DNA from: a virus
Taxonomy: Duplodnaviria > Caudoviricetes
IMG/VR virus record: IMGVR_UViG_3300027889_000009
Location: 1 to 56,327 of that record
Strand: one strand, 5' to 3'
DNA length: 56,327 bases
Position numbers and translations under genes: made by a program. Of this stretch, positions 1 through 43,024 are shown in pieces; position 1 is the stretch's first letter, and every line of letters begins with the position of its first letter. The notes beneath the pieces were generated by a model. That model had not been told where the DNA came from, made no database searches, and saw nothing but the letters and a program-made list of their open reading frames with translations.

Positions 1-811
1 CGGCAACCGCTGCCCACCGATCTTGCCAGAGCTTCACCTGGTCCTCTTTGCCGTTCCCCTTCGCCGCCGGTTCAGGTGGGCCAATCTTCTCCACACCCGC
101 TGGTCCCACGCGGAAGGTGAAGGTCTGCTGGCTGGGGTTGTTTTTAACGGCCTTCAGGAGTTCGGCGACTGCCAAAATTTGAGCGACCTGGGCGCGGTTC
201 TGGCTTTCCTGTGCGACCAGCTGCTGGAACCCCGTGACGGCGGCGCTGTGCAGGCGTTCGGTGCCGGCGCCGAACTGGGCGGCCATTTGGTAGAGTTGGG
301 CGACGTTGTTGTCCGAGTAACTGCCGAGTAGCTGGGCGAACGACGATGCGTACAGCGTCCCCGCCGTAGCGCCGTATGTATTCGTGTAACTCCCTGAGTA
401 ACCGTAGGGGATGGTGGTCACGCTGCTGCCGACGACGGTGGTGCCGTACTTGGCAGAGAGCAAAGCGATAGCCTGATTGAACGCGACCTTATCGGCAAGG
501 GCGGCGTCCAGTTTCAGGAACTCAGTGCGCCAGTTCTCCGTGTACTGGATGGTTGGTGTGGCTGGCGCTGGCGGTTGAACGTAGACCACCTGGACCGGGG
601 TGTAGGCGTAGCCGGAGTAGCCTGGGTAGTACACGCCGCAGCTGTAATAACTGGCTGTCGTGTATGGCGAACGGGAATACGCTTGGTTTCCGTACCACCA
701 GTAGTTGTCGCGGTAGGTGTAACCGCTCGGCGTGGTGTAGCCGTTGCTATACTGGCTCAGGCAAATAGGCGAAAAGGTCAAGATGAACAAAACTGCCAAG
801 AGATTCTTCAA
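1..811 (-). CDS. Exported Tyr/Gly-rich protein of planctomycete type (3' end runs off the window)
   Basis: Not in the ORF track. AAGGAG then TTG start at 811; translates MKNLLAVLFILTFSPICLSQYSNGYTTPSGYTYRDNYWWYG...NWRTEFLKL...WQDRWAAVA and stays open to position 1; N-terminal signal peptide. Confidence 0.8.
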   Translation of the reverse strand, partial: MKNLLAVLFILTFSPICLSQYSNGYTTPSGYTYRDNYWWYGNQAYSRSPYTTASYYSCGVYYPGYSGYAYTPVQVVYVQPPAPATPTIQYTENWRTEFLKLDAALADKVAFNQAIALLSAKYGTTVVGSSVTTIPYGYSGSYTNTYGATAGTLYASSFAQLLGSYSDNNVAQLYQMAAQFGAGTERLHSAAVTGFQQLVAQESQNRAQVAQILAVAELLKAVKNNPSQQTFTFRVGPAGVEKIGPPEPAAKGNGKEDQVKLWQDRWAAVA

Positions 812-1319
812 AGAATTTCTCCTTCGCGTGTTTTTGGACAACTTCTTCAGTGGCACTTCTCCATGCTTTGCGGTAAACAACAGCGTAGACAATGTGCCTA
901 GGTACGCCATGCTTCCTAACCAATTCGCAACTTCTCATGCCTTTGGCATGGTCTTCGTAGATAGCAACGGCTTTGTCGTCGCTTATGGTCGCTAGGCCAT
1001 GCTTCTCTCCAGGGTGCATCCTGTTTTTCTTAACTGCATCTGCGACATTTTCTTGGTGCGTTCCAAGGAAAAGGTGTTCAGGGTTACAGCATGGCGGATT
1101 GTCGCAACGATGGCAAACATGGCCTTTTCCTGGGTCACCATAATGGATTCTGTACATCTCTCGATGGACATATCCGTTCTTGTTGCCGCCGACACACACA
1201 AGACCGTAACCAAGTGGTAATTTTGCTCCTGACCACTCCCAGCATCCATTTTCTTTGACAACGACCCTGCCCTTTATCTTTTGCAGAAGAGTCGCGTCGT
1301 CGATACGATGACGTGGCAT
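747..1319 (-). CDS. HNH homing endonuclease (HNH_3 type) with C-terminal HTH-like region
   Basis: GCWEWSG...GYG...VHREMY...VCHRCDNPPCCNPEHLFLGTHQENVAD motif; AGGAG RBS. Confidence 0.92.
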   Translation of the reverse strand: MPRHRIDDATLLQKIKGRVVVKENGCWEWSGAKLPLGYGLVCVGGNKNGYVHREMYRIHYGDPGKGHVCHRCDNPPCCNPEHLFLGTHQENVADAVKKNRMHPGEKHGLATISDDKAVAIYEDHAKGMRSCELVRKHGVPRHIVYAVVYRKAWRSATEEVVQKHAKEKFFEESLGSFVHLDLFAYLPEPV

Positions 1320-1406
1320 GACTTGGCACTCCTAATGCCTTGTTGTGCAGAACCCGCCGGGCGTTCACATCGCTCGGCGTGTTCGTTTATCCTAGCAATT
1401 CCGCCG

Positions 1407-1493
1407 TCACGTTGCCATCACACTGGCGACGGCGGCGATGATGGCGAACACCAGGCCGACGCGGAGGAGTTGCAGGAGAATCAGTTTACGCAT
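1407..1493 (-). CDS. 28-aa hydrophobic membrane peptide
   Basis: MRKLILLQLLRVGLVFAIIAAVASVMAT*, AAGGA RBS directly after the Tad1-like gene. Confidence 0.5.
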   Translation of the reverse strand: MRKLILLQLLRVGLVFAIIAAVASVMAT

Positions 1494-1503
1494 GGGGTTC
1501 CTT

Positions 1504-1890
1504 TCAAACGGTATGGGTGCCTTCAACACCACGGGCGAGCCGCTTTTCTGTGCGATGCTTCAGCCAGCCAATGGCCTCGCGGACGTGATACAGGGCTTGT
1601 TGGTTTTCAAAACAGGAATATTGGCCAGATTCAAAACCTTCAAGGCGATCTGCAAGAATAGCCAATAATGCTTCGTGAGTTACCCCGTTGGTTCCCACTT
1701 CGGCGATAGGTCCATTTTGGAACGGTATGACAACCTTCCTTTGATCGTGTCCCGTCATGTCATGCCCATCGGTGTTGCCCCACTCGATTTCATAGACGTG
1801 GTTGGCGTTACTGTGGCCACGCTCATCGGTCGCGCAGACCGTCAAGCCATCGTTGACGCGGTTGACCTTGTGGCTGGTTAATTCTCGCAT
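1504..1890 (-). CDS. tad1: Tad1-like anti-defence sponge protein (Thoeris anti-defence 1 family)
   Basis: NHVYEI...IPFQNGP...NGVTHEALLAILADRLEGFESGQYSCFENQQALYHVREAIGWLKHRTEKRLARGVEGT parallels the Tad1 pattern as I recall it (HxY...IxFQxG...GV...LLxIxxDRLxxFQxGxFxxRENxxALxHxxEAxxWxxxRxxxRxxRxVxGT); 128 aa. Confidence 0.88.
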   Translation of the reverse strand: MRELTSHKVNRVNDGLTVCATDERGHSNANHVYEIEWGNTDGHDMTGHDQRKVVIPFQNGPIAEVGTNGVTHEALLAILADRLEGFESGQYSCFENQQALYHVREAIGWLKHRTEKRLARGVEGTHTV

Positions 1891-1900
1891 GGTGGTCCTT

Positions 1901-2173
1901 TCACAGATAGTTGCGTTGGTTGCACAGCATCCTGTGCAGAACTTCTTCGAGCGGAGAACCGTCTTCGCACTTATCGGCCACCTTCAGCAGTTCTTCCAAT
2001 CCTGCCAACTCACGCCTCTTGTCGGCGACGATTTTCTGAAGTCGTTCTTTTGCCAGGTCGCGACTAGGAACGTCGCGGTATTTGCCGCGGCTTGGCGGAT
2101 ACTCGCCCATGACATTGGAATTTGCTTCCGCTTGTGTGATTTCTCGCATGATTTTTTCCATTTCCTTGCTCAT
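1901..2173 (-). CDS. Hypothetical helical protein
   Basis: 90-aa ORF tightly packed in the operon. Confidence 0.7.
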   Translation of the reverse strand: MSKEMEKIMREITQAEANSNVMGEYPPSRGKYRDVPSRDLAKERLQKIVADKRRELAGLEELLKVADKCEDGSPLEEVLHRMLCNQRNYL

Positions 2174-2174
2174 T

Positions 2175-2843
2175 TTACTTTGTGGTCGTGAAGTCCAGAC
2201 GTGTTTCCTTGCCCGCCCGGACTATCGCTTGCCGCTCCACAGTCTTCCCGTTGACCGTCACAGCGATAGTGTACGCGAAATCCTTGCCGTGCTCCAGGTC
2301 GGGCGTTTTGTACGCCCTTTCCACACCAGAAAGCGACGTCTTCTGCCCCCCAATCGTTACCGTCGCATCCGCCGCCACCGTCACCACGATGGTCCCCGGT
2401 TCAGGGGGCAACTCCTTCTTTACATCGGGCACCGCCGCCTTGTCACCCTTCCCCAGCGGCGGACCAGCAACCGCCGTCCCGTCCACCTTGGCCCGCGCTT
2501 CAGCGGCCAGTTTTTCGGCCATCGCCTTGTCGGCGTCCGCCTGTTTCGCCAGCGCATGGGCGGCAGCTGCACGCTCGGCGGCTTCCTTGGCCAGAGCGGT
2601 GCGGTAGTCGGCTTCGGCGACATTGGCCTTGCGATCAGCAACTTCGGCTTCTTTCGCAGCGAGGTCGTAAGCTGCCTTGGCGGCGTGCAGCTTTTCTTGC
2701 GCAGCGGCAGCATACGCTCTGGCTATGGTCGCAGCAGTGCCGACATCTTGCAAGGACGGCGGTTGCTGAAAGTAAATCGAAAACTGAAACAGGCCAGCAG
2801 CGCCGAGCCACATTAGCCCAAGAATAGGATGTATATGATTCAT
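2175..2843 (-). CDS. Exported protein with Ala/Lys coiled coil and C-terminal planctomycete TIGR03000-like domain
   Basis: N-terminal hydrophobic segment; C-terminus TIVVTVAADATVTIGGQKTSLSGVERAYKTPDLEHGKDFAYTIAVTVNGKTVERQAIVRAGKETRLDF matches the TIGR03000 pattern. Confidence 0.85.
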   Translation of the reverse strand: MNHIHPILGLMWLGAAGLFQFSIYFQQPPSLQDVGTAATIARAYAAAAQEKLHAAKAAYDLAAKEAEVADRKANVAEADYRTALAKEAAERAAAAHALAKQADADKAMAEKLAAEARAKVDGTAVAGPPLGKGDKAAVPDVKKELPPEPGTIVVTVAADATVTIGGQKTSLSGVERAYKTPDLEHGKDFAYTIAVTVNGKTVERQAIVRAGKETRLDFTTTK

Positions 2844-2846
2844 GGT

Positions 2847-3545
2847 TCACACCTTCCTTTCGGCTTTGAAGTTCGGCTCCGACCACACTTCCAAGTAGTC
2901 CAGGTGCCCATTGAGTCGGATGACAAGAAACGGGTCTGGATCCCTGATAAGACGCGACACTTCCATGTATTCCACGAACACGCACACTTCTGGAGCGAGC
3001 GCCTTGATGTCCATAGCAGTCTGCAAGGCAAAAGTCGGCACTATGCCTTTCGATACGCCATATTCCGTCAGTGGGCGCATAACCCATCGTGCTTCCGTCT
3101 TTGGTCCGCTGATGACCAGAGCGGTGACAAATGAAACCAACGCGGTCATGAATAATGAAGCCATGAACTTGGCTACGCCGATTTGCGTGGCGTACAAGTC
3201 AAAGTTCTCGTTCAGCATGCCGTTGCAAATCAAACAGAAATAGCCTGTTGTCAAAGCGCCAAGCACCGAACCAACCAAAGTGACGGCAAGAAGAAAAACC
3301 ACGAATGGACTGTCGTTTCCAATCTTGCTACCAATCGTTTGTCGCACCATGCGTTCCTGGTACTCACGCACCGATTCCGGCGTGAACGGTGCGATGTCGA
3401 GTTTGCGGTACACTTCCCGCAGCGTGCTGGGCACCACTTGTTTTTCGAGTGCCGTATAGCCGAGTATGTTGGCAACTTCGGTGGCAAACGTGTCGTCTGG
3501 TGACGGTTCGGTGGCGATGGGGGCGCGGATGAGTGTGGCGGCCAT
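2847..3545 (-). CDS. Two-TM membrane protein
   Basis: Start MAATLIRAP with AAGGA RBS; two hydrophobic segments; C-terminal PDPFLVI..WxEPxF. Confidence 0.75.
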   Translation of the reverse strand: MAATLIRAPIATEPSPDDTFATEVANILGYTALEKQVVPSTLREVYRKLDIAPFTPESVREYQERMVRQTIGSKIGNDSPFVVFLLAVTLVGSVLGALTTGYFCLICNGMLNENFDLYATQIGVAKFMASLFMTALVSFVTALVISGPKTEARWVMRPLTEYGVSKGIVPTFALQTAMDIKALAPEVCVFVEYMEVSRLIRDPDPFLVIRLNGHLDYLEVWSEPNFKAERKV

Positions 3546-3550
3546 TGTTG

Positions 3551-4030
3551 TTATCCTTTCGTTGGTTGTTTCTGCAAGATTTCTTCGTCGATGATGTTCG
3601 CAATCCGTGTGGCCGCGTTGGCGTCCATGACGTAGTTGCGCATGTCCTGGTCGCACCAGATGCGGGCGGCAATGTGCAGGGCTTTCTCGGATGGCACCAT
3701 GTTCAAGCACGAAACTGGCGGCACTGATGGGCGATAATCGTCTGCCACGCAACTACCATCGGGCATAACTTGTACCGGCGGTCCTTCATCAGCACGGTCA
3801 AGTATTTCTTCCAACTCGGCAATCGTCGGCCGCGCTTTGGTGACGGGCGGCGACTTGGCTTCGCCGTCATCCTTGCCGTACCATTTATCCCGCGCCCGCA
3901 CGGCCTGATTGAAAGCGTACAGGCATTGCTTGAGATACGTCGCCAAGATGAAGTCGGGAGTGCTACTGCCATTTTCCATGTTGTGGCAGTTGATGGCGTT
4001 GGCGATGCTTTGCTCGAAACTTGCGGTCAT
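3551..4030 (-). CDS. Conserved phage hypothetical protein (MENGSxTPDFILAxYL family)
   Basis: N-terminal INCHNMENGSSTPDFILATYLKQCL motif of a kind seen in diverse phages; 4-bp overlap with the upstream gene. Confidence 0.75.
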   Translation of the reverse strand: MTASFEQSIANAINCHNMENGSSTPDFILATYLKQCLYAFNQAVRARDKWYGKDDGEAKSPPVTKARPTIAELEEILDRADEGPPVQVMPDGSCVADDYRPSVPPVSCLNMVPSEKALHIAARIWCDQDMRNYVMDANAATRIANIIDEEILQKQPTKG

Positions 4031-6033
4031 TTAAGCACCTTTGGTTGTGTGGTCAGCGTTTCTTCCGGTTTCGTCTTCAACTGTTCCTGTTGCGGTTCCG
4101 GTGGCAACGATGCCCGCGCCACCTGCACCCGTTTTGCCATGAACGAAAAGACGAGCCAATACTGCGATGCGTTGATTCCTTCCACCGATGGTGTCCAAAG
4201 CGCTGCGATGCGTGCGTCTTCCGCTGGTCCCACGGGTGGCAGGTACTTGCTCAGTTGCTCAGCAGCGTGGTTGCGGTTCTTGAACGGGATGCCCAGGTCT
4301 TTGCACGCCCGCCGTGCGTCGGCCAGTTCATACCATTTGTTATAGATTGCCCCGATGCGCTCCCCCGCCAACTTCACCACGTCCAGTTGGGTCTTGCTCG
4401 CCTTCCACGGCCCCGTCACCTTCAAAATGGCTCTCGCGTAATTGTCCCGCGCCGCTGGCAGCGCTGCAAGTTCCAAGTCGCCAGCGTACAGGCCAGCGAG
4501 CCGGTTCACCACGTCGGCCTGCGTTCCCTTGCCGCTGATGTCGCCAAGGATGTCAACGCCGCGTCCCTTGTAGCCTTTCACCAGGGACATGACGTCGTTG
4601 GTGAGCGTGCGCCACCCATCGTCGGAGCGGTGGCATCGGATACAACCAATCGCTGGCTGGAGTCGCTGGGGGTGTGGCGAAGGCACGGTCGAGTCGTTTG
4701 CGACGTCCGGTGGCACTTCACGTTGCAACTTTCCATTTCCATCGAACAGTGCGAAGGTATGCAGTCCGAACTGATTCGTGGCGATGACTTCACGGGCGTC
4801 ATCGACGAACGAAAGCAGATTGAGCATGGCGTCACGGGCGATGTCAATCTGCTTCTGCTTCACGTCCCTCGTCACGATCACGACGGCTTGACCGTCAGAC
4901 GGGCGAGACGCCCTTGTGGGAATAGCATCGGCACGCCTTGGCCTGCCTGTCACCCCGGAACGGAACACGGCCACCCTGTTTTCAGGGCGGTTTTCTTCAA
5001 AAGCCCTTTGAGCGGCATTGCCAGCCGAAGTGGCACTGCCTACGCCAAGGCGGAACAGGAACAGGTCTTCATCCGTGATGCCTTTTTGTTTCGATTCCTT
5101 GATGCCGACCAGCTCATAGTAAAGGCCGCTCCAGATGGTCTTGAATACCCCGTCATCCTGGATGCTCGACAAAGCGCGGAACACGAAGTATTCGTGGTTC
5201 ACCACCGGCGCTTCCGATTGCGTCTCATGCACCAGCGCCGCCATCAACCGTGGGTCAATGTGCTCGCCCACGAGTCTCAGCACGTCCCCGTTGTCCAGCC
5301 CCGTGACGGTGACGACTTCGGTAACGGTTTCATCTTCCCAACGCTGTGTATACGTCTTGCCGTCCGTGTGGACGAACGGCGGCACGGTGACCAGTTTGTT
5401 CTGCTTGAGAACCTTCGTGACGGTCTTCTTTCGCGTTGGGATCTTGCCAGCAACCAGAGCGCCGGCGAACTGGAGTGTATCTTTGGTCAAAAGCAACGAG
5501 AACCGTGGGTCGAATCTCATTTCTTCAAATGCTGCTGCCCATTCTCGATAGTCTTCATCCCGTGGCGCGTAGTCGCGCAGGTCGATGCGCGCCAGCAGCA
5601 CCTTGCCGTTGGTGACGGGCACCGGGCGTTTGCCAATGCTTCCCCGGCTCACAAGGTTCACGGCGTAGGAGACGGCTTGCAGGTCTTCAAACTCGCCGCT
5701 GGCGATCCAGATGTAGCGAATGTGGCAACGCAAGTCGGCGTGAATCGTCATCACGTCGGTGAGTGCCAACGCCAGTGCATCGTTCTCGCTGGCGTGCTGG
5801 TAAGCGGGCGCGGCTTGGCGGTAGAAGGCTGGTGCGGCGGCAGCGGCGAACAGCGTTGCGACCATGAAGACTACCTTGTAGTGCAAAATCTCCTTGGCCT
5901 TTTCCAGGGCAGCATGCCGTATCAGCGCCGCCGTGCTCAACCCTGCCTTCTCTGCCGCGTTTTTCAAGGTGTCCCGCATCCGCTTGGACACACGGACCAT
6001 AATGGTGCAGTCGAGCGGCTGCTTGCGTTTCAT
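4027..6033 (-). CDS. RHH DNA-binding domain fused via a hydrophobic segment to a planctomycete-type exported CxxCH (c-heme) domain
   Basis: Residues 1-50 IMVRVSKRMRDTLKNAAEKAGLSTAALIRHAALEKAKE (RHH); VVFMVATLFAAAAAPAF hydrophobic stretch; LLARIDLRDY, DAREVIA..GLHTFALFDGNGKLQREVPPDVA, GCIRCH. Confidence 0.8.
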   Translation of the reverse strand: MKRKQPLDCTIMVRVSKRMRDTLKNAAEKAGLSTAALIRHAALEKAKEILHYKVVFMVATLFAAAAAPAFYRQAAPAYQHASENDALALALTDVMTIHADLRCHIRYIWIASGEFEDLQAVSYAVNLVSRGSIGKRPVPVTNGKVLLARIDLRDYAPRDEDYREWAAAFEEMRFDPRFSLLLTKDTLQFAGALVAGKIPTRKKTVTKVLKQNKLVTVPPFVHTDGKTYTQRWEDETVTEVVTVTGLDNGDVLRLVGEHIDPRLMAALVHETQSEAPVVNHEYFVFRALSSIQDDGVFKTIWSGLYYELVGIKESKQKGITDEDLFLFRLGVGSATSAGNAAQRAFEENRPENRVAVFRSGVTGRPRRADAIPTRASRPSDGQAVVIVTRDVKQKQIDIARDAMLNLLSFVDDAREVIATNQFGLHTFALFDGNGKLQREVPPDVANDSTVPSPHPQRLQPAIGCIRCHRSDDGWRTLTNDVMSLVKGYKGRGVDILGDISGKGTQADVVNRLAGLYAGDLELAALPAARDNYARAILKVTGPWKASKTQLDVVKLAGERIGAIYNKWYELADARRACKDLGIPFKNRNHAAEQLSKYLPPVGPAEDARIAALWTPSVEGINASQYWLVFSFMAKRVQVARASLPPEPQQEQLKTKPEETLTTQPKVLK

Positions 6034-6040
6034 GCGTGGC

Positions 6041-6068
6041 AGTATAGCGTTTGTACTGCGTTTGTCAA
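6041..6068 (-). promoter_or_regulatory. Sigma-70 promoter for a leaderless transcript, with two ACAAACGC direct repeats (putative operator)
   Basis: TTGACA-N16-TATACT-N7-ATG; repeats at 6047-6054 and 6058-6065 (11-bp period). Confidence 0.8.
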
Positions 6069-6090
6069 TCGGTTTATTTACCGCGAACCC

Positions 6091-6119
6091 TTGTCCGTCC
6101 AGCGTGTCCTGCCTATCAT
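6091..6119 (+). promoter_or_regulatory. Putative sigma-70 promoter for the tRNA-like element and the 535-aa gene
   Basis: TTGTCC-N17-TATCAT, divergent from the 6041-6068 promoter. Confidence 0.5.
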
Positions 6120-6141
6120 TACTGTGCGGGCCTTCCCGTTT

Positions 6142-6214
6142 CGTGGCGTAGCTCAGTCAGCAGAGCGCACCGATATTGCCGGTGAGGTCGGGGGTGCAAT
6201 TCCTTCCGTCGCGA
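6142..6214 (+). tRNA. tRNA-like element (Pro-like C1:G72/A73 body, non-canonical anticodon loop ATATTGC)
   Basis: Cloverleaf: CGTGGCG/CGTCGCG acceptor, GCTC/GAGC D stem, CACCG/CGGTG anticodon stem, GGGGG-TGCAATT-CCTTC T arm; no encoded CCA. Confidence 0.65.
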
Positions 6215-6253
6215 CTTTTCCAAACCCGTTTCTCAAGCAATAGGGGAAGCGCC

Positions 6254-7861
6254 ATGTCCTTGACCACGTCCACCGTCCACACCGATCACGACCACTACTA
6301 CAAGGAATTCGAGCGCCTGATTGCTGACCGCATTGCGTCAGCGCAGGAGCCGCTGTTCACCACGAACGCGGAAGGCTTGTGGGAAGCCTACCTTGCCGGG
6401 ATTCCGGCAGAGCACCGGCAGTATTACAACTGCCGTTGGTGCAAGAGATTCATCGAGAAATACGGCGTGTTGGCGGCAATCAACGCCGATGGCAGAACGT
6501 CAACGTCGCTGATATGGGGCGTCGATGTTCCACGTTTCTTTCTCGACAGCGCGGTTCGGTGCGGCAACATCTTGGCGAAAGCCAAAGTCACCGGCGTCTT
6601 CATCAACGGCGATAAGGTTTGGGGCACGCCAAGCAACGTGGCCGGCGTCGGCTCCAAGTACGTCGGCCAGACCTGGACCCACCTGCACGGCACGCCGCCC
6701 ACGGTGTTCAAGTCCGCGCTGAAGACCGCCGATCAGGAATCCGCTGAGAAAACGCAGGACTACATCACGCTCAAGCGTGGCCTGGACGAATTCCCCGTCG
6801 AAGCCGTCGTGCAGGCTGTGCGCGTCCTGGAAGCCGACGCCGTTGACCGCAGTGAAAAGACACTGGGCGTCGCCAAGTGGCTGCTGGCCCTGCACCAGTC
6901 CATTGCCAGCTTGCGCGGCCCGATGCGCGACAACCTGGTGTGGCTGGCCGTCGCCAAGGCGCCGCCGGGTTGGTGTCACGTCCGCAGCACGATGATTTCG
7001 ACGCTCCTGGATGACGTTGTGCAGGGTTTGCCGTTCGAGACGATCAAGTCGCGGTGGGACGCAAAGATGCACCCGCTCAAGTATCAGCGGCCGGTAGCGC
7101 CACCGAAAGATGGCGCCATCGACGCGGCCAACAAGATCATGGCCAAACTCCAGAGCGAGGGTGCGTTGGCGCGTCGGTTCGCGCGGCTGGACGAGGTGAC
7201 GGCCCTGTGGCGTCCACGGACGGAAGAGGTTGCACCGGCGAAGGCCAAAGGCGGAGCGTTCGACCATCTGAAGGGAAAAGGCGGCACTGCTATCAAGGAA
7301 GTCGAGTTGCCCGCCAAGACAATGGGATGGAATCATTTCCGTGATACGGTGCTGCCGGATGCACTGGAAATCGAGGTACAGCTTGGATGGGGCAACCTGC
7401 CCTTCTACGGCCTGACCACCGCCGTCAACGCCGACGCGCCGGCCATCATCCAGTGGGACGGACTACCCAACCTACCGCGCAACCCGGTGGCGCAGTATTT
7501 CTGGCACGGCGGCTCGCCTGCCAGCCAGTGGGGATTGACGCCGGGGTGGTGCAAGGTGGACGCCATTTGCCTGAAGCCGTGTCACTGGCAGTCTGACAAG
7601 TTTTCGCATCATGGCGGCGGCGTATTCTTCGTGATCGCGGCAGCGCGTGAGTCGCGGATGAGCGGCGCGGCCATCTTCCCCGAAACGCTCCGCGCCGAAT
7701 ACCACAGGATCCGCAGTGTGATTGAAGCTCACTCGCGGCAGTCGGAGATTGCTGGCATGGCGGAAGGGAACGCCAACGGTATCGCTCTGGACGGGCATGG
7801 CAAGCTGACCGTGCGAGTCAAGAGCAAGAGCGGGTTGGACAGCTACGTGCTGAGCATCTAA
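6254..7861 (+). CDS. Conserved 535-aa protein of unknown function with YNCxxC motif
   Basis: GGGGAAG RBS then MSLTTST; LWEAYL...RQYYNCRWCKRFI...WTHLH...HPLKYQRP...LARRFARLDE. Confidence 0.88.
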   Translation: MSLTTSTVHTDHDHYYKEFERLIADRIASAQEPLFTTNAEGLWEAYLAGIPAEHRQYYNCRWCKRFIEKYGVLAAINADGRTSTSLIWGVDVPRFFLDSAVRCGNILAKAKVTGVFINGDKVWGTPSNVAGVGSKYVGQTWTHLHGTPPTVFKSALKTADQESAEKTQDYITLKRGLDEFPVEAVVQAVRVLEADAVDRSEKTLGVAKWLLALHQSIASLRGPMRDNLVWLAVAKAPPGWCHVRSTMISTLLDDVVQGLPFETIKSRWDAKMHPLKYQRPVAPPKDGAIDAANKIMAKLQSEGALARRFARLDEVTALWRPRTEEVAPAKAKGGAFDHLKGKGGTAIKEVELPAKTMGWNHFRDTVLPDALEIEVQLGWGNLPFYGLTTAVNADAPAIIQWDGLPNLPRNPVAQYFWHGGSPASQWGLTPGWCKVDAICLKPCHWQSDKFSHHGGGVFFVIAAARESRMSGAAIFPETLRAEYHRIRSVIEAHSRQSEIAGMAEGNANGIALDGHGKLTVRVKSKSGLDSYVLSI

Positions 7862-11875: not shown

Positions 11876-12802
11876 CTATACCTCGCTGGCTACTCGCTTT
11901 GCTTTTTTTCGCTCGTTGCGGCACGTTCGGCATTCAATCTTGCCCGAATTCGTGACGCGTAAATGAACATCATCGCGGGGATGACCGTTTGGACAATGTG
12001 TTGTTCTTTTCGCCTTCAATGTTGCACTGATTCTTGCTCGCACATCATCAGTCATCCTGTCGCACTGTGGAATCAGTGGCCTGCCAAGGTTTGCAGCATA
12101 CTCTTCCCTCTTTCGTGCGATGGACTCTTCCCGTTGTTCTGGCGTCCTGGCCGCACGACGTTGGCGTGCCTGTTCCTTGGTTATTTCACGACGGGAACGG
12201 TCGTACTCTCGTTTTTCTTCCCGGTGCGCTTCTGCATAAGCACGCATGGCTTCGGCTGTCATGTGTTTCGTGCGCTCATAGTAATTATTAGCCCTTGCTC
12301 GGCGAGTTTCCTGTTGCTCCGGTGTTTCGCTGGCATAGACAGATTTAACGCGAATCGTGTTGCATGTCCGACATATGCGTTTACTTTTGGCGTTGCTATA
12401 AGTGTTCGCCTCCGTGTATTCGTGCCCCTTTGGACAGTGGGTAATCAGGGCGGCGCGGGCGCCGTGAATCGCTTTCGCTCTCTCAAGTTGCTCCGGCGTG
12501 TATTTGGATCCTTCTCTTGACCGTGCCTTTGGACACACATTGAACACTGGCTTGGCGGTGTCCAGGTAATGTTGCTCTCTGGCAAGCAAGTCGGCCTTGT
12601 CACATTCCTCAACGACCACGAATGCAAAAGCATCCTCACCGTGTTTGCTCCAAGAATTTTGCAAGCGCGGCGAGTGATGCTTGCCATTTCGCAACAACTT
12701 TCGATGCTGGTGCCATCGGCTTTTGATGCGCTTGCTGCTACCGATGTACCTATTGCTGGTTCCTGTCTGTTCAATGGCGTAGATGCCACACTTCTGTTGC
12801 AT
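11876..12802 (-). CDS. GIY-YIG homing endonuclease with two THCPxGH..CRTC Zn modules
   Basis: CGIYAIEQTGTSNRYIGSSKRIKSRWHQHR...LQNSWSKHGEDAFAF...REQHYLD. Confidence 0.92.
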   Translation of the reverse strand: MQQKCGIYAIEQTGTSNRYIGSSKRIKSRWHQHRKLLRNGKHHSPRLQNSWSKHGEDAFAFVVVEECDKADLLAREQHYLDTAKPVFNVCPKARSREGSKYTPEQLERAKAIHGARAALITHCPKGHEYTEANTYSNAKSKRICRTCNTIRVKSVYASETPEQQETRRARANNYYERTKHMTAEAMRAYAEAHREEKREYDRSRREITKEQARQRRAARTPEQREESIARKREEYAANLGRPLIPQCDRMTDDVRARISATLKAKRTTHCPNGHPRDDVHLRVTNSGKIECRTCRNERKKAKRVASEV

Positions 12803-13877: not shown

Positions 13878-15203
13878 TTACCAATAGTGTTCCAGCATCA
13901 TGTTGGTAGCATCTTCGTAACCGGGTTGTGGATTAGCTGGTACTGAATACGGAACCAACCCATACCCCGCAATTGCCCAAGCTGCCGTTATTGCTATGTT
14001 GTCCCACTGCATCGTAACGACAGTAGATGCCGGCACAAGTCCCTCGTCCGAATTTGCCCCATTTCCTAGAGTACCGAACACGATGTTGCGGCTGATCTGA
14101 CCAGTATGTGCGGTAACCGCCGACGATTGACCGGCAGCAACAGCTGAATGAACAGTGTCCTTATCGGCGACAGTGGTGATGTTCACCGTCGCGGGAGTGG
14201 CAACACCTGAATTTATTCCGCTATTGCCGGCAAAGGCTTCTGTTGGCGTGGATGGAGTGACGTTGTAGTAACTGGCAGCCGTGCCGGCGCTTGCCACCGA
14301 AGCGGAGAGGGTAACGGCGATGGTATGCGTACCAGTCGCTGGAGCAACCAGACCCCAGCACTCCACCCGTCCCGTTCCACTGACTACGTTCTGGGCACCT
14401 ATCAAGCTGAGCGATACACTGTTGTAAGTGACGCCTGTAACCGTGGTGCCGGGCACAGAAAATATCTCCACGTCCACGGCTAGAAAACCGTTGGCCCCGG
14501 TGCAGGTGTGCATCCACGTATAGGAAGACGACGCAGACTGATAACCAGAATTGGAAGCTGCATCGAACGGAGCACCTATCGGGTTAAATGGAGCGTCACC
14601 GTCCCAAACAATGCCGCCGTGCAGCGTCATCGTGTCGCTGTTGCCGCTGCCGTCCACCGTCGTCGTATTCCCCGGACCTTCGGTAAGTTCCCACAGGCCC
14701 AGCAGACTGCCCAAAGTGTTTGGGTTCAATGTCCCGTTGTAGATGTTCGCCGCCTGCGTGCTGCTCAGGGCGGTTGACGTGGCGAAGATGTCCCACAACT
14801 TTCCACTAAAGAAGAAGGAAGAGCTGGTTGACTGGCCAAAATTGCCGACACTATGATGCGTTGTATCCACAGCCCTTGAACTGGTGATTTCAGAAACACC
14901 GTTCAGGTACACCACCTGAGTGCCAGCGTTGGCCACAGCGACCACGTTGTACCAAACCCCGGTCGTCAGTACCGTGGTGCCATTATCGACGTTGGAGCCG
15001 TCCCACCCCATTTCGAGCACGTTGCCGCTTGTGACTCGCACGCTAAGGTATCCGTCCTGACAATAAATGAATTGCAAGACTCCCAGAGCGCTTAGCTTGA
15101 ACCAAAAGCCGAGAGTCAGTGTGGTACTGCTGAATATACCGCCATTGGCCAGCGATGTGTACTGGTTGCTGGCTGCGACAAAGTCTAGGCTATACCGTGC
15201 CAT
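13878..15203 (-). CDS. LamG/concanavalin-A-like tail or receptor-binding protein
   Basis: TLGFWFK...GVWYNVVAV...VYLNG...FFSGKLWDI..TSTALS...LLGLWELTEG followed by a second beta domain. Confidence 0.85.
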   Translation of the reverse strand: MARYSLDFVAASNQYTSLANGGIFSSTTLTLGFWFKLSALGVLQFIYCQDGYLSVRVTSGNVLEMGWDGSNVDNGTTVLTTGVWYNVVAVANAGTQVVYLNGVSEITSSRAVDTTHHSVGNFGQSTSSSFFFSGKLWDIFATSTALSSTQAANIYNGTLNPNTLGSLLGLWELTEGPGNTTTVDGSGNSDTMTLHGGIVWDGDAPFNPIGAPFDAASNSGYQSASSSYTWMHTCTGANGFLAVDVEIFSVPGTTVTGVTYNSVSLSLIGAQNVVSGTGRVECWGLVAPATGTHTIAVTLSASVASAGTAASYYNVTPSTPTEAFAGNSGINSGVATPATVNITTVADKDTVHSAVAAGQSSAVTAHTGQISRNIVFGTLGNGANSDEGLVPASTVVTMQWDNIAITAAWAIAGYGLVPYSVPANPQPGYEDATNMMLEHYW

Positions 15204-15206
15204 CAG

Positions 15207-17954
15207 TTACCACCAGTACGACATAGAAGCACCCATACCGATACCAGCGCTTGCAGGAGGGGCATATTGCTGCACACTGTAGGAGTACAGGTTGCCGCCG
15301 TTCGTCTTGAATCGGGGACGGTATAGTCCAGCTGGCAACGTGCTCCCATTCCACGTTATCGTCGTACCCGTCGTGCCTGCGCTGACCACCGTACTCTGCG
15401 CGTCACCAAAGCCAGTGATGACATTTCCCTGCGGGTCGAGCAATGCCACCGTGATGTTGCCCGCCGTGCCGTCAGCGTTGACCACTATGGCGTTGACGTT
15501 GGCCACTGATTGATACATCGCCCTGCACGTCACAGAGCCATTCGCTCCTGATGGAGCAAGTGCTTGCCACCTGTCAAAGGGGATGAATCCAAGGCACAGC
15601 TGGTTATCGTAGCCTGTGCCAGCATCGTGAGACACGGTGCCGCCGCTGTACCAAATGTAAATCTGACCGCCGATGTTGAAGTAACCACTGGTGCCGTACA
15701 TCACCTTGGTGTCCGGCCCGGTCACACCGTTGGGAATCCAGTGGTCTTCAACAAGAACATTGCTGTAACCTTCGTCCGGTGAGACATACAGGGACATATC
15801 CGTTGTCCCGTTCGCGTCTACCGCCCGCGAGAATATCGTGATTGGCACCACCCAAAGACGCCCACGCTTGTACGGAGCACACGCCGAGTAGTATTGGTAG
15901 TTCCCCGAACCGGCGATCAGCAAGAACGGCCCCGACCAGTTGGAAGCGTGGGACGGGTTGGACGTAGCGCAGGTGTAGATGCCCAGCGAACGCTGCTCCT
16001 GCTGACTGTTATTAAGGTACTGGGCATAGATAAACGGCTTGCCGCTGGCCCTGAATGTGAGTGCGTCGGCGATGTACGTTGAAGTCGTGATCCCGAATAT
16101 CGTGGGGTTATTGCCTAAATCGAACGTGCCGTCGTCGTGCTGCACGATGTACTGCACGTCCACACCGAGCCCGCTGTTTGGCCCACAACTGAACAGGTAC
16201 TTCGGCTGATGCGTCCCGCTGATGGTGGTAACGCTGAGGACACGATATGTCGATGCGTTGTAGCTGTACAGGCCCACCTTCGTCGAGCCAGCAAATTGAG
16301 AAGTCGTCCACGTCAGCGGGTAACTGTTGACACCCTGAGTCAAGGTCGCAGTTATGACGTTGCCATTCAAAGAACCTGCGATTGTGCAATACTGACCTAC
16401 AACAAGACTGCCGGCAGCGACGAAGGTCAAAGACGTGAAACTGCCATTGATAACTTCGTAGAGGATAAACGTGCCCGACACCTGTGCAGGAACGAGGAGC
16501 AGGTAGTTCTGGTAATCGGTCCAACGGAGCATGAATCCATAAGCGGCTCCGTCGCTCTGTACGATTATCTGGATACTAAAATTGTAGTTAGCAACACCAA
16601 CTTCAATCCAGGCAGTTAGGGTCGCGTTGCTGCCGGGACCAGTCACCGTACCACCGCTGACGACAAACGAACCGGCTCCAGTGCCGAGTATCCAGCACAA
16701 CCCGGTTTCAGGGAAGTAATTGGCGGTCAAGTCGGTGCCATTGCTGAACGTGCCAGATACCAAAGTTGCCGATGGTGGCGTCCAGGTTGGATTATAGACC
16801 ACCCCGACGACGTAGTAGGCTTCTCCGTTGGTGTTGCAGTCAATCAGGTTGTTCGTGGTGGTTCCCGATGACGGTGGGTACTTCGCCAGATTAAGCGTGG
16901 GCTTAGTCCAGCTGATGCCATCGGACGAATATGCGTAAGCAGACCCCATGTTTGCTAGGTTGCTATCAAAGCAGGAGTAGAGCGCTTCATACCTGCCCAG
17001 AATCGCGTTGTAATACACGTTCCAGTAAGCAGCGTAAATGTCCCAGGTATTGCCTGTCGTGATCGGGTTGCCGCTGTACTTCGTGAAAGTGGTGATGGTC
17101 TGCGTCAACCCGCTCGTGGCGTACACGCAGGTCATGCCGTTGGTGCCGCCAGCTGCTACGGAAGTGCCGAAGTCCAGGAACAACTCGTTCCACGTCGATG
17201 GCGTACTGCCGTTCCAGCCGGCTGGATGCCCGCGAGCTTCTCCGTAAGCGAACAACGCGTGCCGGTCCACGGCGTTAACAGCTGCGCCCTGGACGAAGAG
17301 AAATTCCGGTAAGTCGCCGACTAAGACGGCGCCGCTGTAGTAGCCTACTGTCAACGGATTGGTCGGGGCGCCCAACGAAAAACCACCGCCCACACCTGAG
17401 TTAGTCCCCAAGCCGAGGCTGACGTCCCAATCCCAAGCAGCCACCGTGGTGCCGTCAAAAGTGATGAGCACGCCGTGGACAGCCGGCGTCTGTAACACGC
17501 TGGACCACGACCAGTTGACGGTGAGGGTGCCGGCATTTGAGATCAGCACGACCAACGAACTCGTGCTGGCGATGTACTTGATACAGAAACCAGTCCCTGT
17601 CCCATTGGCGCTAGTGTCGAAGATGACATAGGTGCCCGTTGGCGGAAACACGGCGGATCGCGGGAAGTAAAGGATCGACCACGGGTTGCCGTTGGAGAAA
17701 CCGGTCCAGTCGCCAGCAGACGCCGCTTGCAGGCCCTGGTTGGCGGCGCCGGACCAGCTGATCTGCTGTTTACCGATTGGCCAGTCTTGCGGATGAAAGA
17801 CCGGCGGCGTGCCGAGTGCCGTGAGCGTTTTGCCACCTATCGCATCGGTTAAGGAAGCGACGTTGGCACCTTCAGCAAGCAGCAGGGTATCGGCCTTGTA
17901 CTGGTTAGAGTACACAGCTCCGGCGGTCGTCAGTGTCGGCGGCGTTAGCGCCAT
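15207..17954 (-). CDS. Large receptor-binding/depolymerase-like protein (LamG-like plus GH32/43-type beta-propeller)
   Basis: Likely start MALTPPT; SAYAYSSDGISWTKP and LYVSPDEG Asp-box-like motifs; IYIWYSGG; C-terminal VVNADG...VALLDPQGNVITGF. Confidence 0.8.
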   Translation of the reverse strand: MALTPPTLTTAGAVYSNQYKADTLLLAEGANVASLTDAIGGKTLTALGTPPVFHPQDWPIGKQQISWSGAANQGLQAASAGDWTGFSNGNPWSILYFPRSAVFPPTGTYVIFDTSANGTGTGFCIKYIASTSSLVVLISNAGTLTVNWSWSSVLQTPAVHGVLITFDGTTVAAWDWDVSLGLGTNSGVGGGFSLGAPTNPLTVGYYSGAVLVGDLPEFLFVQGAAVNAVDRHALFAYGEARGHPAGWNGSTPSTWNELFLDFGTSVAAGGTNGMTCVYATSGLTQTITTFTKYSGNPITTGNTWDIYAAYWNVYYNAILGRYEALYSCFDSNLANMGSAYAYSSDGISWTKPTLNLAKYPPSSGTTTNNLIDCNTNGEAYYVVGVVYNPTWTPPSATLVSGTFSNGTDLTANYFPETGLCWILGTGAGSFVVSGGTVTGPGSNATLTAWIEVGVANYNFSIQIIVQSDGAAYGFMLRWTDYQNYLLLVPAQVSGTFILYEVINGSFTSLTFVAAGSLVVGQYCTIAGSLNGNVITATLTQGVNSYPLTWTTSQFAGSTKVGLYSYNASTYRVLSVTTISGTHQPKYLFSCGPNSGLGVDVQYIVQHDDGTFDLGNNPTIFGITTSTYIADALTFRASGKPFIYAQYLNNSQQEQRSLGIYTCATSNPSHASNWSGPFLLIAGSGNYQYYSACAPYKRGRLWVVPITIFSRAVDANGTTDMSLYVSPDEGYSNVLVEDHWIPNGVTGPDTKVMYGTSGYFNIGGQIYIWYSGGTVSHDAGTGYDNQLCLGFIPFDRWQALAPSGANGSVTCRAMYQSVANVNAIVVNADGTAGNITVALLDPQGNVITGFGDAQSTVVSAGTTGTTITWNGSTLPAGLYRPRFKTNGGNLYSYSVQQYAPPASAGIGMGASMSYWW

Positions 17955-17990
17955 GAGCACAACTAGAAGCCACACGCTTCTGCCCCTGTC

Positions 17991-18019
17991 TTGACGGAAG
18001 GCCACGATGAGTGTATCAT
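17991..18019 (+). promoter_or_regulatory. Sigma-70-like promoter of the glycosyltransferase gene
   Basis: TTGACG-N17-TATCAT. Confidence 0.55.
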
Positions 18020-18077
18020 CTTCATTCAACAAACGTATCATAAGGATACGCTGGCGGTTCCGCAACGAGAAACCGAA

Positions 18078-18953
18078 ATGGCCAAGCATCTTGTCGCTTT
18101 GGGGCGTCCCACGGGAAACGGATACGAGCGGGTTGAGATAGGCAATCTCATCATGGAAGTGACGGGACAGTTCTACAACGACCCGGAAGTGACGCCGTTT
18201 ATCAGCGACATCGTCCACATCCCCATCCAGAAGTTCCCCACGTCGCTGGCACGCAACACACTCGTGGACAAGTGCCAGAAGTACGCCGGTCCCGCAGGTG
18301 CCAGGGTCGATTACCTGATGATGGTGGACGTGGACGGGGCGCCGCGTCCTGGCACCTTCAAGGCCATGTTCAACTTCCTTCGCCAGCAACCTGTTCCCAG
18401 CGTCGTTGGTGCCCCGTACATCAGTGGGGATGGGTCAATCCAGGTGTTCCACTTCGACAGCGCCCAGGTCCACTTCAGGCACGGCCTGAACGACTTCGGC
18501 ATCAAGCGGTACAGCAGGGAGTTGGCGGCGCTGAAGCAGGGAACAGGATTCGAGCGCGTGGCGTGCGTTGGGACGCACTGCGTCATGTTCGACATGCGGG
18601 TGTTCGACGACCTGAAGCGGCCTTACTTCATGTACGCAAGCAACGAGATAGGCACGGAATGCACGGAGACGGAAGACTGCTACCTGATGCGGCACCTGTT
18701 CCACAAGGGAACGCCGATATTCTGTGCGTGGGACTACCCTGCGGTCCACTACAAGGAGCTTCCCTTGGAGATACCGACGCCAATCGGTCTGGACCAGATA
18801 CCGGAGTTCTACCAGCGGAAGGTGGCTGCTGCGGAAGCGGTGTCGCTCAAATCAGAAGAGAAGTGGGACAAGGATGCGGTAGCGGCACTGCGGCCAAATG
18901 GCAACGGCGAAGTCACTCCTTTGGCTTCGCCTTCAGATGACCGCGCTCGTTGA
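18078..18953 (+). CDS. GT-A fold (GT2-like) glycosyltransferase
   Basis: SLARNTLV...DYLMMVDVD (DxD)...VGTHCVMFDMRVFDDLKRPYF...TEDCYL...VHYK. Confidence 0.82.
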   Translation: MAKHLVALGRPTGNGYERVEIGNLIMEVTGQFYNDPEVTPFISDIVHIPIQKFPTSLARNTLVDKCQKYAGPAGARVDYLMMVDVDGAPRPGTFKAMFNFLRQQPVPSVVGAPYISGDGSIQVFHFDSAQVHFRHGLNDFGIKRYSRELAALKQGTGFERVACVGTHCVMFDMRVFDDLKRPYFMYASNEIGTECTETEDCYLMRHLFHKGTPIFCAWDYPAVHYKELPLEIPTPIGLDQIPEFYQRKVAAAEAVSLKSEEKWDKDAVAALRPNGNGEVTPLASPSDDRAR

Positions 18954-29069: not shown

Positions 29070-30410
29070 CTACTGCTGACCAAAATTGCCAAAAAGACCA
29101 GTGGCGCGAAGTATTGACGCTCCAACTCTTGCCGTGATGCTTGTGGCCTGCGCTGGTGTTGGTATGCCAGCGGCATTGGCGACTGTTTGAATTGCACCTG
29201 GCCTATTGTTATTGTCTCTCTGGATATCCCTGAGCGCTTGCAGTATGTCGGCAAGGAAGTCGTTGGTCTCCTTCACGCCGCCAGCGCCAGCGACGAATGA
29301 CGCCGTGGTGACGTCCTTGGCTATCTGCTCGAAGGATGCGATTCGGGAGTTAGTGGGTGCCGCCAGTGCTCCGGGTTTGTTTGAGAGCGCGTCGATTAAA
29401 TTCTGGACGATGTTGGGAAAGACCAGCGAAGCGAATCTGGCGACGAACGCCACCATCGTCAGTATCACGCCCTTGAGAGAATCCGAGAACAGTTTAAGGA
29501 CACTGCCAACGGCGCTGATTATCGGCGCGAGAACGGTCTTGAAGACGGCCACCACGGAATCGACCAGTACCTTGACCAGCGCGTTGAACACTTCAATGAG
29601 CGCCGAGAATACCGGCTCCAAAGCAAAGAACAGGTCGATGATTGGTTGCAGTATTCCGTACAGGATATTGAGAGCGCCTGCTAATATCGTGATGATGACG
29701 GTCAGTGGGAGCATGGCGACCTTGAACTGGTCCGCCAGCACTGTCAGGTGGACCATCAGCAGCTGCAATACCGGCGTCAGCAGACCGAAGATGTTGGCCA
29801 GTACCTTGATGACGGACAGAAGCGTGTCGCCCATCAGTTGGGCGAGTTGCTGGACGATGGGGGCCAGCTGCTGCATGACGGGAAGGAGTTGCCCGGACAC
29901 GTTGGCGGCGAGACTGCCGAATACCTGAAAGACGGGCAAGAACGCCACGCCGATGGTGGCGGACAGATTCTGCATCATCTGGTCGAACAGTTGAATGGTG
30001 GCTGGGGACAGCGCCTGGACGAAGGAACGGCTCTTGCTCGCCAGATCTTCAAATGCACCCACCACGGCGCCGACGACGATGGCAACTGGTGCGAGAGCAG
30101 CGCTGAGCGTTGCGAACGCTTCGCCTATGCCAGCGAGTGCGCCGCCTGTCGTACCTGTTGGTGCAGCGGTCACTGATGGGGTTATGACAGCGCCGGCCTT
30201 GTCGATGGCCCCCTGGAGAACCTGTTCCTTGAGTTGGTACTTGCCGGCAATGCCTGTGGCGAGTGCCTTGGCGTAGGCGTTGAAGGCCGATTCGAGCGCC
30301 TTTACGGCGTCGTCGGCCTTCTTCAGGTCTTCCGGGAAGTTCTTGGCTGTGTCGGCAAGATCCTGCGTCAGCGTGTTAATCAGGTTTTGATACGCAAGTA
30401 TCTTGCTCAC
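29070..30410 (-). CDS. Tape measure protein (short)
   Basis: 446 aa amphipathic helical protein with periodic Pro; follows the chaperone genes. Confidence 0.8.
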   Translation of the reverse strand: MSKILAYQNLINTLTQDLADTAKNFPEDLKKADDAVKALESAFNAYAKALATGIAGKYQLKEQVLQGAIDKAGAVITPSVTAAPTGTTGGALAGIGEAFATLSAALAPVAIVVGAVVGAFEDLASKSRSFVQALSPATIQLFDQMMQNLSATIGVAFLPVFQVFGSLAANVSGQLLPVMQQLAPIVQQLAQLMGDTLLSVIKVLANIFGLLTPVLQLLMVHLTVLADQFKVAMLPLTVIITILAGALNILYGILQPIIDLFFALEPVFSALIEVFNALVKVLVDSVVAVFKTVLAPIISAVGSVLKLFSDSLKGVILTMVAFVARFASLVFPNIVQNLIDALSNKPGALAAPTNSRIASFEQIAKDVTTASFVAGAGGVKETNDFLADILQALRDIQRDNNNRPGAIQTVANAAGIPTPAQATSITARVGASILRATGLFGNFGQQ

Positions 30411-34625: not shown

Positions 34626-34904
34626 TCACACGAACGCTATGTCAACGCCGAGTTTGTCCGCCATGTCCTTGAGTTTTTGCTTCTTCTCTTCGAGTTCGCA
34701 ATTCGGTTCGCCGTGCCTTTTGTCGTACTCCCTGGCGCGGTCCAGAAGGCGGCGAAATTCTTCAATCTCCAATGCTGTCGGGAACGGAACCGTTGGCACC
34801 GGCGATACTGGTGGCAGTGGTGGTATCACATACGGTTGCGGTGGCCAGTACCGACGAAACCAGTCGTCAGTCTTTGAATCAATCACCATCGACAAAGTAC
34901 ACAT
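34626..34904 (-). CDS. Conserved phage hypothetical protein
   Basis: MCTLSMV...LLDRAREYDKRHGEPNCELEEK. Confidence 0.7.
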   Translation of the reverse strand: MCTLSMVIDSKTDDWFRRYWPPQPYVIPPLPPVSPVPTVPFPTALEIEEFRRLLDRAREYDKRHGEPNCELEEKKQKLKDMADKLGVDIAFV

Positions 34905-42952: not shown

Positions 42953-43024
42953 GGTGGGTGTGGTGCAACGGTAGCACACCGGACTCTGATTCCGGAGATG
43001 CCAGTTCGACCCTGGTGGCCCACC
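42953..43024 (+). tRNA. tRNA with CTG (Gln) anticodon and His-type G-1:C73 acceptor
   Basis: G-GTGGGTG...GGCCCAC-C; GTGC/GCAC D stem; CCGGA-CTCTGAT-TCCGG; GCCAG-TTCGACC-CTGGT; followed by CCT. Confidence 0.78.

Follow-up and report, generated by a model that had tools for sequence, protein, structure and literature searches.

The leftmost 6,033 nucleotides of a 56,327-bp contig from an uncultivated tailed phage (Duplodnaviria; Caudoviricetes; IMG/VR record IMGVR_UViG_3300027889_000009) carry nine genes on the minus strand, designated here g1 to g9, and we consider this region to be, on balance, probably a composite and not one functional module. The contig is the entire record and is referred to below as the window. 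A conserved, phage-borne pair of haem-type genes, g1 and g9, would form the two ends of the composite, and the seven genes between them (g2 to g8) would be a cargo island that has entered the junction of the pair. The case is made by gene order, conservation, motifs and family matches, all of which are direct observations. A first-pass annotation of the window had instead read all nine genes as a single system. That annotation itself named co-occurrence in other genomes as the measure of its claim, and the claim fails for seven of the nine genes, because homologues of g2 to g7 are found in none of the 37 other g1 loci that we collected and a homologue of g8 in only one other phage.

What we infer from these observations is export, haem attachment, complex formation, a redox role and action at the cell envelope. 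The g1 product would be an exported protein of about 600 residues with one invariant CxxCH motif, and that of g9 an exported protein of about 300-400 residues, often rich in tyrosine and ending in a small class-I or PSCyt1-like cytochrome c domain (CxxCH followed by Met-Pro). Sec would carry both into the host periplasm, the cytochrome c maturation system of the host would attach haem to each of them there, and the two would act as a two-subunit periplasmic redox enzyme in which g9 is the His/Met electron-transfer partner of g1. The clearest member of the putative cargo would be a sponge of the Tad1 family, with an HNH homing endonuclease at the edge of the island. Any specific substrate for the pair is proposed with much less confidence than this composite picture.

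Conservation and features of the g1/g9 pair

The other loci encoding a relative of g1 (11 from IMG/VR, 2 from species genomes and 24 from metagenomes) include six duplicates of at least 99.7% identity, and hence represent 31 distinct loci; three of these end at or just after g1, so that the downstream neighbour can be assessed in 28. A hidden Markov model built from g9 homologues detected a g9 relative downstream of g1 and on the same strand in 27 of the 28, and gene neighbourhood thus agrees with the earlier suggestion that the tyrosine-rich protein (g9) is a partner of the CxxCH protein (g1). The two genes lie between -31 and +151 nucleotides apart in 17 of the 23 complete pairs, with several four-nucleotide overlaps of the ATGA type, and since they abut or overlap in most phages they are probably made together. 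No other gene of the nine-gene region shows a comparable association with g1 when the same loci are searched by tblastn.

The pair is both widespread and largely viral. While a word-indexed protein search returned 66 homologues of g1, a profile of 30 of them reached 3,446 cluster representatives at E<=1e-3, 743 of which were at E<=1e-30; the nearest clusters in the protein atlas are 80-91% viral. Among 185,579 species genomes a search with a 12-sequence alignment gave only two relatives, both on contigs of metagenome-assembled genomes and one on the same contig as an IMG/VR record. Pair-bearing loci range from 34 to 69% G+C, which indicates that more than one group of hosts is represented among the phages that carry it. 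The first-pass annotation had considered the families of this region host-like and specific to planctomycetes; that description suits the TIGR03000 domain of g4 and nothing else, given the viral clusters, the two relatives in species genomes and the spread of base composition. Searches of 50,697 GenBank phage records by tblastn matched neither g1 nor g9, blastn of window positions 1-6100 against GenBank phages gave no match, the pair is absent from Pfam, NCBIfam, PHROGs and the PDB, and an exact-peptide scan of IMG/VR with the single g1 protein returned nothing. An identical 668-residue g1 is present on three contigs, and a contig from a public soil-metagenome run, probably the source, agrees with the window base for base and begins at the same left end; all of these may lack independence from the sample that yielded the window. 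A contig of 98.8 kb encodes an identical g1 and g4.

Gene g1 (4027-6033, minus strand) is the first member of the pair and encodes a large exported-type protein of 668 residues with a single, invariant CxxCH, here CIRCH (C464, C467 and H468; 4630-4644, minus strand). Each of the 192 relatives collected has exactly one such motif. Among 187 near-full-length relatives C464, C467, H468 and D390 are conserved in all sequences and E415 and Y305 in 99%, while no methionine and no second histidine is conserved at 85% or more in this alignment. Their absence is compatible with a haem whose sixth position is open or unusual, and it is because no conserved methionine or second histidine is available as sixth ligand that g1 would be the catalytic subunit. 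A strongly hydrophobic 12-mer begins within the first 30 residues in 150 of the 192 relatives, and an alignment of 30 sequences shows typical signal peptides in the homologues; the hydrophobic segment of g1 itself, at residues 49-72 (5818-5889, minus strand; by hydropathy), aligns with these. The AlphaFold2 (AF2) model of g1 is of good quality (predicted local distance difference test, pLDDT, 82.9; predicted template modelling score, pTM, 0.77), and a fold search with it found no match in the PDB or BFVD at E<=0.001; nor did a profile of the g1 family match any PDB sequence. The protein atlas lists structural resemblances, at a template modelling (TM) score of about 0.6, to PSCyt1-bearing proteins from bacteria of the Planctomycetota and Myxococcota and also to DUF4384 proteins, which we treat as leads and not as proof.

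The window copy of g1 has an additional feature at its N-terminus, a putative ribbon-helix-helix (RHH) segment of the NikA/MobA type at residues 8-45 (5899-6012, minus strand). It scores just under threshold against PF21983 (E=8.3e-6; 26.3 bits against a cut-off of 27) and matches NF041264 MobA at E=0.005. It precedes the hydrophobic segment as an in-frame fusion, and the window protein is the only one of the 192 family members to have it. In the AF2 model two helices occupy residues 17-30 and 34-66 (pLDDT 68-85), and the second RHH helix passes straight into the hydrophobic segment with no linker. We scanned ten small ORFs from five loci with Pfam and PHROGs, three of them upstream of g1 and seven in the g1/g9 junction, and the upstream ORF encoded no separate RHH protein in any of the three homologous loci concerned (L001, L002 and L004). 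A possible internal TTG start at L51 lies three nucleotides after an AAGGAG motif. A promoter of sigma-70 type (TTGACA-16-TATACT; 6041-6068, minus strand) can be proposed from its consensus, of which it matches 11 of 12 positions; a scan found four promoter-like sites where 2.7 are expected by shuffling, and only the quality of this one stands out. It ends seven nucleotides upstream of the g1 ATG and would therefore give a leaderless transcript. Genes g2 to g9 are each preceded by a motif of Shine-Dalgarno (SD) type and g1 alone is not, which is consistent with a leaderless first gene. The product could be read in two ways, as a membrane-tethered protein with a cytoplasmic RHH and a periplasmic domain, made from the leaderless ATG, or as an ordinary secreted form made from the internal TTG. 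Were all 668 residues made, a DNA-binding segment in the cytoplasm would be joined through a single membrane helix to a large domain in the periplasm, an arrangement that recalls membrane-tethered one-component regulators such as ToxR and CadC. Those proteins have a winged helix, however, and g1 a putative RHH without a linker before the membrane helix, 191 of the 192 relatives are without an RHH, and the internal start could yield a plain signal-peptide form.

The second member of the pair, g9 (2-811, minus strand), has a signal-peptide-like start, a tyrosine-rich stretch (15 tyrosines in 60 residues) and a helical middle, and its C-terminal cytochrome c-like domain is cut by the end of the contig. 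A TTG at 811, preceded by GAAGGAG with a seven-nucleotide spacer, is a likelier start than the ATG at 910. It had been proposed that the missing C-terminus might carry another CxxCH, and relatives of g9 show this to have been well judged: P0067, which differs from g9 at one residue, runs past the contig edge and reaches a CxxCH after four residues (and is itself truncated, at 324 residues), and the motif is present in all 24 ORFs of the family that reach that far. Met-Pro follows some 40-50 residues after the CxxCH in 22 of 23 complete relatives, the two residues being near-invariant; the window copy stops before that point. An N-terminal hydrophobic segment was found by hydropathy in all 23 homologues. 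Of six homologues tested against Pfam, five match PSCyt1 (PF07635), with one score of 24.2, over the cut-off of 22, and four of 16.3-18.1, under it, and three match Cytochrome_CBB3, including the one with no PSCyt1 match.

The nearest described analogue is PSCyt1, the 'Planctomycete cytochrome C' domain, and the small class-I cytochromes c in general, with which g9 homologues share the CxxCH followed by Met-Pro, and to whose bearers the distant structural relatives of g1 may also belong. The likeness has limits, in that a single g9 homologue of the six exceeds the cut-off and g1 matches no cytochrome family. It also differs in setting, since phages carry g1 and g9, and g9 has the domain at its C-terminus, whereas cellular PSCyt1 domains usually stand at the N-terminus of much larger proteins. 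A looser analogy may be drawn with SoxAX and with TsdA/TsdB, in which, as here, two adjacent genes encode CxxCH proteins, one large and one with a small cytochrome c domain; Sec export and co-translation would be further points in common. The phage pair differs from these in being phage-encoded, in having one haem motif per subunit, and in showing no sequence or fold similarity to solved proteins.

The genes around the pair vary from phage to phage. It precedes a terminase gene in L002, follows a DNA polymerase gene in L009 and follows a virion structural gene (phrog_771) in L006, L007 and L020. Clustering of ORFs by BLASTP placed genes for proteases of secreted type near the pair in 13 of the 31 distinct loci, a hint of action on the cell envelope. 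Five of the 13 were also scanned with Pfam, the others being assigned by the clustering. They comprise M10 matrixins with a PG_binding_1 prodomain in five loci, directly upstream of g1 (two scanned, 110 and 76 bits), astacin-like proteases in five (two scanned, 26.6 and 23.5 bits against a cut-off of 22.5) and S8 subtilases in three (one scanned, 187 bits). In L027, L036 and L037 the M10 gene lies immediately against the start of g1. Coordinates of such protease genes (matrixin with prodomain, astacin-like or subtilase) are L027 4054-4947, L037 6075-6935, L002 13356-14549, L017 10225-11172 and L001 18903-19943. Two of the fetched loci, L026 and L032, lie on one 305,596-bp metagenome contig, in which a pair-bearing stretch of 15.7 kb occurs twice at 100% identity, 181,588 bp apart; a concatemer formed from a circular genome some 182 kb in length might explain this. 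A complex prediction for g1 and g9 of L002 gave a score of 0.00 against a mark of 0.32, which is no answer and counts neither for nor against binding.

The genes at the g1/g9 junction

All nine of the closely spaced, co-oriented genes described in the first-pass annotation are present on the minus strand, three of them with slightly corrected starts. Between g1 and g7 successive genes are spaced at -4 to +10 nucleotides, 87 nucleotides separate g7 from g8, and g8 and g9 overlap; no strong minus-strand terminator was found inside the region. At least five of the products had been thought membrane-bound or exported, and hydrophobic N-terminal or internal segments can indeed be assigned to five of them (g1, g3, g4, g7 and g9, with g4 borderline by hand count), the measure being Kyte-Doolittle hydropathy.

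The genes between g1 and g9 are a heterogeneous set. Gene g2 (3551-4030, minus strand; 159 residues) overlaps the g1 stop by four nucleotides; its N-terminal part of about 50 residues matches phrog_18819 (3.4e-9), phrog_31227 and phrog_30199, all of unknown function, no match was found in the PDB, and an exact-peptide scan of IMG/VR gave one short C-terminal match, in L014. Gene g3 (2847-3545, minus strand) encodes an orphan protein of 232 residues with two hydrophobic helices, and spacing and the SD motif favour the ATG at 3545 as its start, not the TTG at 3752. The product of g4 (2175-2843, minus strand; 222 residues) has a weakly hydrophobic N-terminus, a stretch rich in alanine, glutamate and lysine, and a C-terminal TIGR03000 (plancto_dom_1) domain at residues 150-218 that is well above threshold, as had been called (E=3.5e-15; 55.7 bits against a cut-off of 43.1). 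Neither g3 nor g4 has full-length relatives besides their own records, and exact-peptide scans of IMG/VR with each single protein found nothing. Gene g5 (1901-2173, minus strand) encodes 90 residues, and no family match was found for it or for g3 and g7. The hydrophobic 28-residue peptide of g7 (1407-1493, minus strand; hydropathy 2.56) can be placed from an ATG at 1493 with a GAAAGGA motif upstream, in keeping with the membrane peptide first described there; no homologues of it were found, and it is the weakest call among the nine genes.

The product of g6 (1504-1890, minus strand; 128 residues) is by contrast readily placed, and the original Tad1-like designation proves well founded. It matches solved Tad1 structures at E=4e-14 (8kbb), 1.5e-13 (8kbg, 7uav and 8kbh) and 2.1e-13 (8kbe) over 74-111 aligned residues, and phrog_2428 at 1.1e-30, and 198 GenBank records, from phages with many different hosts, contain homologues, the best at 47.7% identity. 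In the alignment to CbTad1 (7uav) all four residues of the pocket for glycocyclic ADP-ribose (gcADPR) and cyclic dinucleotides are kept, F82, N92, R109 and R113 of CbTad1 corresponding to F86, N96, R113 and R117 of g6. Among the mutants described for CbTad1, the double mutants F82A/N92A and R109A/R113A have severely reduced gcADPR binding (PMC10680739), and with the four residues kept, g6 should blunt signalling of the Thoeris type. Neither of two residues of the cyclic-trinucleotide pocket and the hexamer contacts is kept, R90 and T97 being replaced by F94 and Y101; in the same account their mutation markedly reduces binding of the cyclic trinucleotide cA3, and both also take part in hexamer formation (PMC10680739), so that the replacements bear on cA3 and the hexamer and not on gcADPR. 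We would thus regard g6, from an uncultivated phage and at most 47.7% identical to its GenBank phage homologues, as unremarkable within an established family, except that its range of ligands is probably narrower.

At the far edge of the island g8 (747-1319, minus strand; 190 residues) encodes the HNH homing endonuclease, which matches HNH_3 (2.6e-10; 40.2 bits against a cut-off of 24.8, in agreement with the earlier call), phrog_1872 (1.7e-28) and the PADLOC model PDLC03704 HEase; it is the sole PADLOC match, and no defence system was otherwise detected by PADLOC. The 3' end of g8 and the 5' end of g9 share 65-164 nucleotides, depending on the g9 start, which is what an endonuclease gene dropped in ahead of g9 would produce. 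A further homing endonuclease gene lies at 11876-12802 (minus strand), residues 1-89 of its product matching homing-endonuclease PHROGs, including phrog_5123 of the GIY-YIG type, and residues 107-219 PHROGs of the HNH type, and the phage of the window therefore has at least two such elements.

Comparison with other loci gives the island its interpretation. When the 37 loci were searched by tblastn no homologue of g2 to g7 was found in any, and the only homologue of g8 is in one other phage (L011/L028), where an HNH gene encoding a protein 32% identical occupies the same g1/g9 junction on the opposite strand. Inserts of 0.37-2.45 kb are present at this junction in six of the 23 complete pairs, and they carry unrelated genes. 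The insert of L015, which is the closest relative with context (47% identity), consists of five unrelated co-oriented ORFs; those of L001, L003, L007 and L011 show no Pfam match and only PHROGs of unknown function. We suggest on this comparative basis that g2 to g8 form a 3.2-kb cargo island inserted at the g1/g9 junction, the spot at which other phages have received other inserts. Variable, unrelated small genes at a fixed junction with an HNH gene at the edge are also what is seen in phage 'moron' hotspots and homing-endonuclease insertions. The g1/g9 hotspot differs from these in lying inside a pair that is normally translationally coupled, so that the insertion has parted two probable partners by 3.2 kb.

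The remainder of the window

The window has no terminal repeat, and joining its ends yields no sensible continuation of g9, so that a circular contig finds no support. Its structural genes, all on the minus strand, identify a tailed phage and include those for the portal (45124-46839), the major head protein (36684-38186), a head-tail adaptor (34912-35811) and a tape-measure-like protein (29070-30410). A gene at 13878-15203 (minus strand) encodes 441 residues with a Laminin_G_3 or concanavalin-like lectin domain and adjoins a gene at 15207-18389 (minus strand; 1,060 residues) with no family match; the two are likely tail-fibre or receptor-binding genes. The structural region contains a tRNA-Gln (CTG) on the plus strand (42954-43026), and a perfect (TCAC)x12.5 microsatellite lies near the right end of the contig (55486-55535).

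The nine genes form a separate minus-strand block that starts at a divergent intergenic region (6034-6253) and exits the left end of the contig. On the other side of this region a large plus-strand gene (6254-7861) matches phrog_1735 (unknown function; 1.9e-89) and no Pfam family. Between it and g1 lies a tRNA-Asn with the unusual anticodon ATT (6142-6215, plus strand), itself preceded by a weak promoter-like site (6091-6119); as the tRNA overlaps the longest-ORF start of the phrog_1735 gene (6176), that gene probably starts later. Two other genes of the window have counterparts at loci bearing the pair. A DNA-methyltransferase-like gene (47884-48681, minus strand; phrog_2675, 1.6e-9) has homologues in L012 (10252-10827) and L015 (92-694), and a 92-residue protein encoded in the structural region (34626-34904, minus strand), with no family match, is 49% identical to the product of an L003 ORF (8692-8946) directly after the g9 homologue and clusters also with an L021 ORF (4817-5140) downstream of the pair.

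Alternative explanations and significance

That all nine genes form one envelope-directed system, acting in superinfection exclusion, lysogenic conversion or periplasm remodelling, with the small membrane proteins and the TIGR03000 protein working alongside both CxxCH proteins, was the reading of the first-pass annotation. The genes are tightly spaced behind one strong promoter-like site and with no strong internal terminator, five products have hydrophobic segments, and the domain of g4 carries the name plancto_dom_1 in NCBIfam. We nonetheless think it unlikely. The absence of g2 to g7 from other g1 loci, the want of any full-length relative of g3 and g4, the 17 complete pairs of 23 with nothing between g1 and g9, and the unrelated genes of the other junction inserts all tell against it, and the roles of g6 and g8 are known to be cytoplasmic. 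Lysogenic conversion in particular is without support, there being no integrase among the ORFs scanned on this incomplete contig.

The composite reading must itself be set against several observations that weigh on the other side, most of which concern the nature of the pair. Haem binding is argued from the motif, and thiol or metal sites too can have a CxxCH, just as export is argued from hydropathy. Pfam and NCBIfam do not recognise g1, which matches no cytochrome family and returns nothing from PHROGs and PADLOC beyond the RHH. PSCyt1 scores in g9 homologues are mostly under the cut-off; the tyrosine-rich stretch is not universal, tyrosine content ranging from 3 to 31% and reaching 12% in 13 of 23 homologues; and AF2 modelled a g9 homologue poorly (pLDDT 50.1), a fold search with that model giving no match at E<=0.001 and only non-significant matches to small cytochromes (E>=1.2). 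One locus, L012, has g1 and no g9 in the 10 kb downstream, where a gene for a 90-residue membrane protein and an HNH-like gene follow instead, the window has no homologue of the neighbouring proteases, and the three pairs that follow a structural gene make a structural role possible by context.

This last observation also speaks for the idea that the CxxCH motifs are disulfide or metal sites without haem and that both proteins are structural or adhesive components of the envelope or virion. Low-complexity stretches rich in tyrosine and glycine are common in structural proteins, and no cytochrome domain is detectable in g1. A histidine that is invariant after CxxC in 192 of 192 g1 and 24 of 24 g9 relatives, a Met-Pro spaced as in His/Met cytochromes c, and signal-peptide-like N-termini unsuited to virion assembly in the cytoplasm make this, in our estimation, the most improbable of the explanations considered here. 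The pair might alternatively be an auxiliary metabolic module of periplasmic electron carriers that plug into host respiration and sustain energy during infection, as the resemblance of the g9 C-terminal domain to small soluble cytochromes c (PSCyt1 and Cytochrome_CBB3) and a variable context typical of accessory genes, with terminase, DNA polymerase or structural genes adjoining, would allow. The predominance of viral sequences in the nearest clusters stands against this, the rarity of relatives in species genomes indicates that the pair is not a recently borrowed respiratory gene of the host, g1 resembles no known respiratory enzyme in Pfam, NCBIfam or the PDB, and the spread of G+C argues against a host-specific pathway, so that we give it little credence. 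Slightly better placed, though still improbable, is a function in lysis or breaching of the envelope, whereby an exported oxidative enzyme and secreted proteases would break protein-rich envelope layers at release or entry; the protease genes beside or near the pair, abutting the g1 start in three loci, and the predicted export signals of both proteins are what this would lead one to expect. Eighteen of the 31 loci, however, have no protease within the fetched flanks, the window has none, no holin or endolysin was identified adjoining the pair in the loci examined (a minority of neighbours having been scanned), and no lysis system is known to use c-type haem proteins. A lysis pair of the spanin type was set aside on size (about 600 and 350 residues) and on the conserved haem motifs.

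Within the composite reading that we prefer, a more specific proposal can be made, and only as a speculation that is itself unlikely. Here g1 would be a peroxidase-like haem enzyme that the phage delivers outside the cytoplasm and whose distal site is open; g9 would supply it with an electron-transfer haem and the tyrosine-rich stretch, and together they would oxidatively cross-link (through dityrosine) or cleave envelope proteins of the host. If this were true, the phage would make its own means of hardening or dismantling the cell surface, either blocking superinfection or aiding release alongside the neighbouring proteases. It would be a new class of envelope-remodelling machinery in phages and, among exported haem enzyme systems, the first to be a phage's own and not taken from a host.

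Phages are not known to carry conserved, exported c-type haem proteins of their own. Phrase searching of the literature collection covered gave a single, unrelated entry for phage- or virus-encoded cytochrome c, and among the PSCyt1 papers listed none has a phage in title or abstract. That the pair is common (743 clusters at the stricter threshold), mostly viral and of wide base composition, and yet missing from the databases, points to a sizeable blind spot in phage annotation. As the junction between its two genes gathers variable cargo, which in this phage includes a Tad1 sponge, searches for new counter-defence genes might profitably turn to this site in other phages.

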